Assembly: GCF_044324875.1 (NCBI RefSeq)
Contig: NZ_CP172192.1
Strand: one strand, 5' to 3'
From: Escherichia coli
GTDB taxonomy: Bacteria > Pseudomonadota > Gammaproteobacteria > Enterobacterales > Enterobacteriaceae
Length of the DNA: 1,983 nucleotides
Positions 1 to 1,933 of this stretch are shown here, piece after piece. The first letter of the stretch is position 1, and each line of letters opens with the position of its first letter. The notes beneath the pieces are model-generated. The model saw only the letters and a list, made by a program, of their open reading frames with translations, searched no databases and was not told the DNA's origin. The translations under genes were made by a program, and so were the position numbers.

Positions 1-33
1 TGCGCGGTCCGACATTCCCACATCCTGTCCCGA
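1..33 (-). repeat. Inverted-repeat arm, proximal 33 bp (reverse complement of 289..321), truncated by the window start
   Basis: Exact 33/33 reverse-complement match to 289..321. Together with 1933..1983 it reconstitutes the full 84-bp arm if the window ends are joined. Confidence 0.95.
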
Positions 34-288
34 AAATTCCCGCCGTTTCTCGGTTTTTTGAGCGTCGCAGACCGCACGACAAACGAAACGAAGTGTAGTT
101 TGTATGAGTGCGCACTTCGTGAGATTCCCCGACTGCCAGTTTGTCGATCGCGCGGAACAGCTGTGGCACGAAAACGGCAGAATGATTTGCTGTCCGGTTG
201 CCAGAACTGCGCGCTTACGTGGAGGGCGGCGCGGCGCAAAAAACTGCCGACATTGCGCCAGTGTTCCGGTGACACAAACCCGCAGAAA

Positions 289-372
289 TCGGGACAGGAT
301 GTGGGAATGTCGGACCGCGCACGCTCGCTCAGACATTCCCCACCTGGTCAGGGCTTCGCCCCGACACCCCGC
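289..372 (+). repeat. 84-bp arm of a perfect inverted repeat (internal copy)
   Basis: Compared by eye base by base: reverse complement of 322..372 equals 1933..1983 and reverse complement of 289..321 equals 1..33, with no mismatches. Identity stops at 373 versus 1932 and at 288 versus 34. Confidence 0.95.
301..343. other. Nested stem-loop inside the repeat arm
   Basis: GTGGGAATGTC (301..311) pairs with GACATTCCCCAC (332..343), one extra C as a bulge, around a 20-nt GC-rich loop. The same structure exists in the other arm across the window junction (1964..1973 with 11..19). Confidence 0.6.
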
Positions 373-513
373 CAACGCCTCACGGCACGCGAAAAAATTC
401 CGCGTACCGCTCACCGTTCTTGAACTCGTCAAACAGAAAATCGCGGGGCCCCGCGCCTCCGGCGTGGGTTCCGATTTTGTGATTGACGACGGCACGGGGA
501 AAACGCTGGGTAT

Positions 514-568
514 GGTGGTTGGTGTCACGGAGTGAGGCCAACCACCTGCAAGACGGTTTTTTGTTGTT
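514..568 (+). other. Stem-loop followed by a T-rich tract
   Basis: GGTGGTTGG (514..522) pairs perfectly with CCAACCACC (538..546) around a 15-nt loop. TTTTTTGTTGTT (557..568) follows after a 10-nt gap. Confidence 0.3.
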
Positions 569-601
569 CACAAAATTGGGGTGAAAGTCTGTGGATGAGA
601 T

Positions 602-634
602 GGGTGTAAGTGGGTGGGGTTGGGAGGTTTTGGG
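602..634 (+). other. G-run cluster fitting a G-quadruplex motif
   Basis: GGG 612..614, GGGG 616..619, GGG 622..624, GGG 632..634 with loops of 1, 2 and 7 nt, plus extra G-runs at 578..581 and 602..604, within a GT-rich stretch 577..640. Confidence 0.3.
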
Positions 635-675
635 TTACTGAAAATCCAGCTCAAAATTCAAGCAAATCTCGCGCG

Positions 676-711
676 CGATCCTTGTATTTATACTTAAGGG
701 ATAACTCTAGG
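676..711 (+). promoter_or_regulatory. AT-rich island with a second nick-site-like motif; alternative dso or rep promoter region
   Basis: CTTGTATTTATACTTAAGGGATAACTCTAGG (681..711) is the only AT-rich stretch in an otherwise GC-rich window. CTTGTAT resembles CTTGATA, and TAAGGGATAACT resembles the TAAGGGTAACT that I recall downstream of the pC194 nick; that recollection is unverified. Confidence 0.2.
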
Positions 712-843
712 ATTCAAATTGGCCTCCAGCCCTTGTCCCGCAAGGCTTGAGGGCACATTTGCTCCGAAATGGGTTTAGAAGTATTCTGTCGGAAGTGGTC
801 GCGTTAAAAGCGACCCCCGCAACGAGGGCAATCGTTCGGGGGC

Positions 844-907
844 GTGACCACCTGTAGAAATTCGAATTAGTGACACGACAACACAGGTGATATGGCAATG
901 ATAACAC
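844..907 (+). promoter_or_regulatory. Candidate double-strand origin (dso) and nick region of the rolling-circle replicon
   Basis: 7-bp stem CACCTGT (849..855) with ACAGGTG (883..889) enclosing a loop that holds the perfect 10-bp palindrome AATTCGAATT (859..868). Immediately 3' are tandem TGATAT (888..893) and TGATAA (899..904), then ATAACAC (901..907). pC194-class origins are nicked at G/A within CTTGATA, and the phiX174 origin, as I recall it, contains TGATATTAATAACAC. Lies 40 to 100 bp upstream of the rep start. Assignment is by motif resemblance only. Confidence 0.35.
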
Positions 908-943
908 GTCAGATGAGCCATCGCCCACAATCGGGTGGTGCGC

Positions 944-1933
944 ATGAAAAACCCTAAACTCCAGTACCTCACTGATTATTCCCCCTCTGACGCGCCCTGG
1001 GACGCACACAGAAGCGTTTCTGACGACGTGGGAGGGATTTACCTGCTTGCGGCCGAATATGAGCGCTACGGGGCTCGTATGGCCTCCTGTGGCGGTTTAC
1101 TGCGTTTCGGGTGGTCTACCCTCAAGGAAACCGGAGAAACGCGTCTGAGGCTGCGTGAGGCGCATTTCTGCCGTGTCCGGCACTGTCCTGTCTGCCAGTG
1201 GAGGCGCTCCCTGATGTGGCAAGCCCGTTTCTACCAGTCCCTGCCGCGTATCGTGGCGGATTACCCTGATGCCCGCTGGATGTTCCTGACCCTGACCGTG
1301 CGCAACTGTGCGATTGGGGAACTGGGCGAGATGCTGAACCGGATGAATGCAGCTTTTCAGCGTATGAAGGTTCGCAAGGAGTTCCTGCCTGTTCAGGGCT
1401 GGATCCGCACAACGGAAGTTACCCGCGGCAGCGACGGCAGCGCGCATCCCCACTTCCACACCCTGATGATGGTGCCGCCCTCAATGCTATCTGGTGACGG
1501 GTACGTAAAACATGCTCGCTGGGTTGAACTCTGGCGGGAGTGCCTGCGGGTCAGTTACAACCCGAATGTTGATGTCCGGGCAGTAAAACCCCGTAAGCCA
1601 AAGGATGGCGAGTCCTTAGCCTGCGCGACCGCTGAACTGGTGCGCGGCGCAGTGGCCGAAACCCTGAAATATTCCACGAAGCCGGCTGACATGGTGGCCG
1701 ATCCTGAATGGTTCCTCGAACTGACCCGCCAGACGCACAAGCGCCGCTTTGTGGCGACCGGCGGCGCACTCAAAGACGTGCTGAAACTCGATCAGGAAAC
1801 CGACGCCGACATGGTGATCGGGGATGATATTTCCGAGGGCGACGATGACGGTTCACGCATCGCGTTCGAGTGGAAAACCGAGGTCAGAAAGTACCGTCGC
1901 TCACCGACGAAAGATAAAACTGAATCAGGCTAG
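944..1933 (+). CDS. rep: Rolling-circle replication initiator protein, HUH endonuclease of the pC194/pUB110 (Rep_1) class
   Basis: 332-codon ORF 935..1933 in the supplied track. Translation carries motif I FLTLT (nt 1283..1297), motif II HPHFH (nt 1445..1459, the HUH metal-binding motif) and motif III ETLKYSTK with Glu four residues before Tyr (Tyr codon 1670..1672), the arrangement known for pC194 RepA. Start is ambiguous: GTG at 935 or 938, or ATG at 944 preceded by GGTGG (934..938) at Shine-Dalgarno spacing; I chose 944. Stop TAG 1931..1933. Confidence 0.9.
   Translation: MKNPKLQYLTDYSPSDAPWDAHRSVSDDVGGIYLLAAEYERYGARMASCGGLLRFGWSTLKETGETRLRLREAHFCRVRHCPVCQWRRSLMWQARFYQSLPRIVADYPDARWMFLTLTVRNCAIGELGEMLNRMNAAFQRMKVRKEFLPVQGWIRTTEVTRGSDGSAHPHFHTLMMVPPSMLSGDGYVKHARWVELWRECLRVSYNPNVDVRAVKPRKPKDGESLACATAELVRGAVAETLKYSTKPADMVADPEWFLELTRQTHKRRFVATGGALKDVLKLDQETDADMVIGDDISEGDDDGSRIAFEWKTEVRKYRRSPTKDKTESG

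Follow-up and report, generated by a model that had tools for sequence, protein, structure and literature searches.

The plasmid and its replication protein

The 1983-bp stretch of Escherichia coli DNA analysed here (the window, taken at its full length) is a full-length, 100% match to Salmonella enterica serovar Enteritidis plasmid pB (NC_005002.1), a complete circular rolling-circle plasmid that also occurs in E. coli and that PLSDB places in replicon type ColpVC; relative to the NC_005002.1 record, the window starts at a different point of the circle. Our subject is a set of four cysteines near the N-terminus of pB Rep, the protein encoded by the plasmid's rep gene (Table 1). RefSeq starts this protein at an ATG at 944, which gives 329 aa (WP_011117490.1, labelled 'protein rep' in NC_005002.1); our residue numbers count from the GTG at 935 and exceed those of RefSeq by 3. 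The match of pB Rep to the Pfam family Rep_1 (PF01446) has an E-value of 7.8e-85 and a score of 284.8 bits, where the family's cut-off is 33.2, and runs over profile positions 2-252 of 253 (aa 71-320). This match identifies the protein as a rolling-circle replication initiator of the Rep_1, or pC194-pUB110, family.

The motifs that define such an initiator are all in place: FLTLT (117-121), H173-F-H175 and Y246 lie on invariant or nearly invariant columns of the family alignment described below. The histidines of motif II are the catalytic divalent-cation site, which is separate from the cysteines discussed here, and Y246 is the presumed catalytic nucleophile, a role taken from the established mechanism of HUH endonucleases (PMC5714925). 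Rep_1 proteins are described by these motifs I to III, with cysteines and zinc unmentioned (PMC5714925), and the searchable full-text literature contains no report of a metal site in Rep_1, an earlier mention in older primary papers being possible.

A first-pass annotation of this DNA had pointed to a cluster of histidines and cysteines, HFCRVRHCPVC, as a small metal-binding knuckle. Translation confirms that the residues it named (H77, C79, H83, C84 and C87) are where it placed them (Table 1) with the C-x4-C-x2-C spacing it gave, and its estimate of about 30 residues to motif I is accurate, since FLTLT begins 30 residues after C87. By composition alone the cluster is only modestly unusual. 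The 332 residues of pB Rep include 7 cysteines and 8 histidines, and when these residues are shuffled, five Cys or His within 11 residues appear in 486 of 100,000 shuffles and three Cys within 9 residues in 4,809 of 100,000. The cluster is not chance because its cysteines are conserved, and it is this conservation that we examine now.

Table 1. Features of the plasmid, with positions numbered along the window and residues numbered from the GTG at 935.
Feature	Position	Strand	Basis or remark
rep gene of pB	935..1933	+	only large gene; 332 codons from GTG 935 (open reading frame list)
Predicted N-terminal module with the Cys4 set (aa 40-109)	1052..1261	+	AlphaFold2 model
C52 codon, proposed fourth ligand, 26 residues before C79	1088..1090	+	Cys in 146/148 diverged, 121/121 close and 13/13 cross-phylum sequences
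HFCRVRHCPVC (H77-C87), three of the four conserved Cys and two non-conserved His	1163..1195	+	translation
Codons of this segment	H77 1163-1165; C79 1169-1171; H83 1181-1183; C84 1184-1186; C87 1193-1195	+	
Family signature F-C-R-V-R-x-C-P-V-C-Q-W-R-R (aa 78-91), Cys knuckle with basic and aromatic residues	1166..1207	+	column counts
HUH-endonuclease motif I, FLTLTVRN (aa 117-124)	1283..1306	+	L118, T119, L120, T121 and N124 at least 90% conserved; strand 114-121 in model
Motif II, HUH metal-binding His, H171-P-H173-F-H175	1445..1459	+	H171 151/153, H173 152/152, H175 150/152
Y246 codon, motif III tyrosine (LKYSTKP)	1670..1672	+	invariant, 150/150
78-aa hypothetical protein WP_000263637.1	299-535 (record 1422-1658)		RefSeq; start overlaps one oriT-like (origin of transfer) arm
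15-nt hairpin, then T-run	514-546 (arms 514-528 / 532-546)		spans stop codon of the WP_000263637.1 gene

Four cysteines are conserved across the Rep_1 family

Searched exhaustively with HMMER, a set of 1.84 billion cluster representatives yields 3781 relatives of pB Rep, and we aligned the best 150 of these (37-62% identity, apart from four short fragments at 82-85%) with the query and two prototypes, pC194 RepA and pUB110 RepU; 148 of the aligned sequences cover the cysteine region. The 150 relatives are supplemented by a total of twelve distant Reps picked by hand. We find that the three clustered cysteines are retained almost without exception (C79 in 147, C84 and C87 in 146 each of the 148) and that they are joined by a fourth, upstream cysteine, C52 (in the context RMASC52GGLLRF), which is kept in 146. 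Each of the four is at least 98.6% conserved, on par with the HUH histidines and the motif III tyrosine. The Cx4CPxC spacing of the cluster is fixed, and the gap from C52 to C79 ranges from 19 to 34 residues with a mode of 26. The remaining cysteines of pB Rep are far less well kept: C125 in 115 of 153, C203 in 67 of 151 and C230 in 3 of 54 sequences.

The two histidines behave quite differently from the four cysteines. H77 is a histidine in only 19 of the 148 diverged relatives, with Arg the commonest residue there, and H83 in 46, being otherwise F, L, Y, T or N. Even among the query and its 120 closest relatives (at least 67% identity), where all four cysteines are present in 121 of 121, H83 is kept in 108 and H77 in just 58. 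Because these positions are freely replaced in diverged relatives, H77 and H83 are not ligands. The residues that are preserved along with the cysteines are of another kind: around the knuckle F78 (136 of 148), R80 (111, with 23 H and 11 K), R82 (127) and P85 (122), and directly after it W89 (130), R90 (144) and R91 (125, with a further 21 K, so that R or K stands there in 146).

The same pattern holds over much larger distances. A tblastn search spread over 72,556 plasmids yielded a cross-phylum set of ten Reps at 24-42% identity, from Lactiplantibacillus, Bacillus, three staphylococci and streptococci, Clostridium perfringens, Pseudonocardia (Actinomycetota), Acinetobacter, Rahnella and Arsenophonus. 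The four cysteines are present in ten of ten, across Bacillota, Actinomycetota and Pseudomonadota, and the positions of the two histidines are filled by N, W, F, Y, A, H, L or S. We are virtually certain that C52, C79, C84 and C87 form a conserved Cys4 set of the family as a whole.

The prototypes of the family carry this set as well. In Staphylococcus aureus pC194 RepA it reads C37...C60-x4-C65-P-x-C68 (stretch SCKNRFCPVCAWRK; peptides EDC37NTFLSF ... ANSC60KNRFC65PVC68AWRKA) and in S. aureus pUB110 RepU C56...C79-x4-C84-P-x-C87 (stretch FCKSRLCPMCNWRR; peptides KDC56AEILEY ... WFC79KSRLC84PMC87NWRRA), in both cases with the same Cx4CPxC as pB Rep. The upstream cysteine lies 22 residues before the cluster in both prototypes, against 26 in pB Rep, and the positions of H77 and H83 hold N and F in RepA, W and L in RepU. 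Overall identity between pB Rep and the prototypes is only 25-30%, yet all three proteins share W-R-(R/K) after the knuckle, motif I, the HUH motif and the tyrosine, and RepA and RepU match Rep_1 with E-values of 1.5e-58 and 1.8e-87. A homologue search started from pC194 RepA gave 120 near-identical proteins, which did not broaden the sample. As an observation on the reference record itself, the RepA frame in NC_002013.1 (114-803, minus strand) ends at 229 aa. Most database proteins with 99-100% identity over this length have 311 aa, and a frameshift or premature stop close to the 3' end of rep is probable in the classic pC194 record.

These results recast the first-pass annotation. The idea of a small metal-binding knuckle with flanking histidines survives for its three cysteines, for which the comparison of Rep_1 homologues that it proposed comes out positive, and fails for both histidines; its list of ligands was also incomplete, the upstream C52 completing the set. 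It did not count the cluster among the standard features of pC194 RepA, where in fact it occurs, as it does in RepU. Nor do the cysteines mark a distinct subgroup or an extra element, being near-universal in the family, with the three clustered ones inside the Pfam Rep_1 model: they are Rep_1's own signature and no added domain. In short, the cysteine signature is ordinary for Rep_1 and sits on a plasmid that was sequenced two decades ago. The fourth cysteine lies outside the Pfam model, which starts at aa 71 (window position 1145), between the first and second conserved cysteines, and which therefore omits, along with C52, the remaining elements of the module, a helix and a hairpin.

The rare exceptions to this conservation are themselves informative. 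In P0192, which represents a 26-member cluster on up to 14 contigs, C84 is replaced by Asp, and Asp is found in every full-length member. Where other Reps have the HUH motif, this lineage (P0192 and P0511-P0524, all metagenomic) reads HPHLN, and its motif I, AVLTQEN, is deviant as well; the metal sites of this Rep may be altered. In the singleton P0246 it is C87 that has become Asp. In a second singleton, P0255 (348 aa, on one 3.5-kb contig, and weak evidence for that reason), all four cysteines are lost together (to T, S, D and T) with motif I, HUH and the tyrosine intact; this is either a lineage that manages without the site or a sequencing oddity. Aspartate can also bind metal, and both the Asp replacements and the joint loss of four cysteines fit one shared metal site, not disulfides or simple packing.

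Predicted structure of the cysteine module

To see how the four cysteines are arranged we turn to an AlphaFold2 model of pB Rep built on a 146-sequence alignment (model mdc739304abd3). The model has a mean predicted local distance difference test score (pLDDT) of 94.3 and a predicted template modelling score of 0.91, and the pLDDT of 10-residue blocks stays between 93 and 98 across aa 41-110. The modelled order is a helix (40-51), a beta-hairpin (55-63/69-75), a loop (76-84), a long helix (85-109) and then the motif I strand (114-121). C52 comes directly after the first helix, C79 and C84 lie in the loop, and C84-P-V-C87 opens the long helix, with C87 in its first turn. A helix end, a loop and a CPxC at a helix N-terminus make up a familiar zinc-site layout, and the predicted fold is compatible with a Cys4 site.

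Structural databases add little to this picture. Searching PDB sequences with the single protein and with a 140-sequence profile gives chance hits only (STING, TEAD, TRIM25), and a Foldseek search of the model against the PDB returns nothing at E <= 0.001. A search of viral structures in BFVD gives 64 Rep-like matches, mostly unnamed, which are uninformative on the cysteines.

Resemblance to IS91-type and Helitron transposases

We now consider a resemblance that reaches beyond plasmid replication. pB Rep gives a sub-threshold match to the Pfam family Zn_Tnp_IS91 (PF14319, 'Transposase zinc-binding domain'; E 0.0034, 17.8 bits, aa 76-101 on profile positions 51-76 of 90), and a faint one to the NCBIfam IS91 transposase model; pC194 RepA matches Zn_Tnp_IS91 with E 0.0021. 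When 140 Rep_1 members are scanned singly, 85 of them give sub-threshold matches to this family at E <= 0.1 (best 2.6e-5), and the next-ranked families outside the Rep/HUH group appear in at most 6 of the 140, presumably by chance. For comparison, the transposases of ISVsa3 (ISCR2) and ISCR1 score 70.6 and 76.6 bits against this family, over profile positions 5-89 and 2-89.

The likeness can be followed residue by residue. The ISVsa3/ISCR1 peptide reads LQC64GRLEHGFLRVRC76ESC79HAEHLVAFSC89KRRGFC95PSC98GARRM, and its A-F-S-C-K-R-R-G-F-C-P-S-C-G-A-R-R can be set against A-H-F-C-R-V-R-H-C-P-V-C-Q-W-R-R of pB Rep, both segments standing directly N-terminal to the HUH domain. In the alignment C64, C89, C95 and C98 of ISVsa3 pair with C52, C79, C84 and C87 of pB Rep, and the predicted models of the two proteins share the order helix, Cys, beta-hairpin, Cys, CPxC, helix. 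There are differences too. The spacing is Cx5CPxC in the IS91 type and Cx4CPxC in Rep_1, and at the tip of the hairpin the IS91 type carries a C-x2-C-H (C76, C79 and H80 of ISVsa3) that is invariant in 46 ISCR-type transposases, a narrow alignment at 74-100% identity except for ISCR1 at 66%. Rep_1 proteins lack this hairpin-tip motif, and the corresponding tip of pB Rep, KETGET, is without Cys or His. The IS91-type proteins may thus have a second site or a different ligand set. We do not assign the Rep_1 module to PF14319 and regard it as a shorter version of the motif, to which it is probably related.

A shared motif would fit earlier reports: IS91 transposases were reported in 1992 as related to the pUB110-family Reps (Mendiola and de la Cruz, as cited in PMC4778049), and a network analysis connects the IS91 cluster with plasmid Reps (PMC6668415), in the text of which a search does not find the word 'zinc'. 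In the Helitron transposase, the N-terminal region has a zinc-finger-like motif, and this region is needed for binding and cleavage of single-stranded DNA (PMC4778049). The Helraiser (Helitron) transposase itself (PDB 7lcc) matches pB Rep in Foldseek with E 0.19 and 11% identity and is unlike it in being eukaryotic, with two catalytic tyrosines and a fused helicase. A zinc-type module ahead of an HUH nuclease has already been described for IS91 (in Pfam) and for Helitrons, and Rep_1 proteins appear to have their own, unannotated form of this arrangement.

A probable metal site and its alternatives

Conservation and modelling together make it reasonably likely, in our judgement, that Rep_1 proteins share a structural Cys4 site made of C52, C79, C84 and C87, which most likely takes Zn2+ and positions a conserved basic surface facing the DNA. 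The parts of this interpretation differ in strength. That the Cys4 set binds a metal is quite probable from its pattern of conservation, and that the metal is zinc is likely. Mechanistically, a single structural metal would be held by the four cysteines, whose sulfurs would converge, with the histidines excluded. It would clamp three elements together, namely the N-terminal helix, the beta-hairpin and the first part of the long helix ahead of motif I, and would also fix a basic and aromatic surface (R80, R82, W89, R90, R91) adjoining the nuclease core. This surface would in turn touch origin DNA, either for recognition of the double-strand origin or for placement of single-stranded DNA in the nicking centre formed by HUH and Tyr.

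Several points weigh against this interpretation. Our sample is the best 150 of 3781 representatives, and branches of Rep_1 free of these cysteines may exist. The PDB search found no solved Rep_1 structure for comparison. The Zn_Tnp_IS91 match of pB Rep falls short of the family's cut-off of 26.3 bits and extends over just 26 of the 90 profile positions, and the pairwise score of pB Rep with ISVsa3 is reached by 20 of 2000 shuffles. Profile comparison by hhalign of Rep_1 with ISVsa3 or with the 46-sequence ISCR profile gives E 0.014-0.022 and a probability of 2-3%; the local match spans only 22-38 columns and is too weak for a claim of homology. The AlphaFold2 model of the ISVsa3 transposase is of low confidence (pLDDT 44), so that only its order of secondary-structure elements is usable, and that weakly, and the 'zinc-binding' label of the Zn_Tnp_IS91 domain in Pfam is a prediction. 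Finally, a role for the module in DNA binding, which draws on the conserved arginines and on the Helitron analogy, is an evenly balanced proposition.

The alternative that survives best concerns this last step: the metal site would only stabilise the fold or meet a protein partner (in Rep dimerisation, or a host helicase of the PcrA/UvrD type), with no contact to DNA. Zinc sites often do just stabilise small domains, the module packs directly on the helix leading into motif I in the model, and DNA contact is shown by no result here. We nonetheless consider this unlikely, given that the knuckle is ringed by the near-invariant R82, W89, R90 and R/K91 and that the N-terminal region of the related Helitron transposase is needed for binding of single-stranded DNA (PMC4778049).

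A second alternative changes the metal and not the site: the four cysteines would hold an iron-sulfur cluster or, as in rubredoxin, a single iron, and replication would perhaps be sensitive to oxygen or iron. Four invariant cysteines without a conserved histidine suit such a centre, for which zinc and iron-sulfur are indistinguishable from sequence alone, and the predicted nature of the Pfam label leaves room for it. The 'iron staple' of the AddB, Dna2 and Cas4 nucleases, too, consists of one distant and three close cysteines, which the one-plus-three arrangement in Rep resembles. What makes iron improbable to us is that a CPxC at a helix N-terminus and a tight Cx4CxxC are typical of zinc sites, that an Asp is tolerated in the 26-member cluster, and that coloured Rep preparations are unreported in the literature found, the older biochemical papers being outside that scope.

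It is much harder to do without a metal altogether, with the cysteines kept for packing, as disulfides or as a redox switch, or present by chance composition. Three cysteines in 9 residues do turn up in about 5% of shuffles, but chance composition does not keep four cysteines near-invariant across three phyla while C125, C203 and C230 drift, and the chance reading is rejected on this conservation. The reducing cytoplasm makes stable disulfides unlikely, and the only variant cluster with several members swaps Cys for Asp and not for Ser, Ala or Val; the disulfide reading is rejected on these two grounds, and the metal-free alternative as a whole is very improbable. Least credible of all is a subgroup-specific His/Cys knuckle, missing from pC194 RepA, in which H77 and/or H83 would join the three clustered cysteines, for these histidines, although present in pB Rep and in the case of H83 kept in most close enterobacterial relatives, give way elsewhere to residues unable to bind metal (R, F, L, Y or T), H77 being often replaced even in close relatives, while pC194 RepA and pUB110 RepU have the Cx4CPxC without them and a conserved fourth cysteine, C52, is at hand.

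Other features of the plasmid

The remainder of pB holds several features that are independent of the cysteine set. A perfect 84-bp inverted repeat is formed by 1933-1983 plus 1-33 (across the circular junction), which is the exact reverse complement of 289-372, the two copies lying 255 bp apart. The 86-bp repeat unit matches more than 1,200 E. coli records, almost all of them plasmids, and is found at 79-95% identity in most of the roughly 2,290 matching records of a plasmid collection; its carriers are for the most part large conjugative plasmids from E. coli, Salmonella and Klebsiella. In pCP55-141k the unit occupies the intergenic space separating mobC from mobA/relaxase, the expected place of an origin of transfer (oriT), and an arm of the inverted repeat contains CATCCTGT, which we take to be an RP4/R64-type nick motif. 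From these matches it seems that an oriT-like sequence is present twice in pB, in inverted orientation. PLSDB labels the plasmid 'mobilizable' although it is without a relaxase.

Upstream of rep, the non-coding segment 662-704 (GCAAATCTCGCGCGCGATCCTTGTATTTATACTTAAGGGATAAC) is 95% identical in E. coli plasmids of about 2.09 kb, which match window positions 1-934 nowhere outside this segment; 662-704 is a candidate double-strand origin. CTTGATA, the nick sequence at double-strand origins of the pC194 type, is absent from the whole pB plasmid. Allowing one mismatch brings up a single site, on the minus strand within rep, and sites of this kind occur at least once in 183 of 200 shuffles. The hairpin listed in Table 1 looks from its sequence like a terminator or an element of a single-strand origin. 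A 14-nt inverted match, 86% complementary, relates the non-coding 169-182 to 1166-1179 (codons F78-R82); being short, imperfect and a family of two copies, it is most likely chance.

Implications

The likely ligand set C52/C79/C84/C87 opens the way to direct mutagenesis and metal analysis in the Rep proteins of pC194, pUB110 or pB, and it also shows that the Pfam Rep_1 boundary splits the four-cysteine set in two. It further suggests a connection that can be tested, namely to the cysteine domain of the IS91/ISCR transposases, which is just as uncharacterised and belongs to enzymes that move antibiotic-resistance genes. In its broadest form, which we put forward only tentatively and think somewhat doubtful as a whole, the Cys4 centre of Rep_1 would be an essential zinc, or possibly iron-sulfur, site that shares an ancestral DNA-handling module with the N-terminal cysteine domain of IS91/ISCR transposases. 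If this is true, the three-motif picture of the Rep_1 family omits a fourth essential element, and both rolling-circle replication and the ISCR-driven spread of resistance genes could depend on metal supply or redox state.

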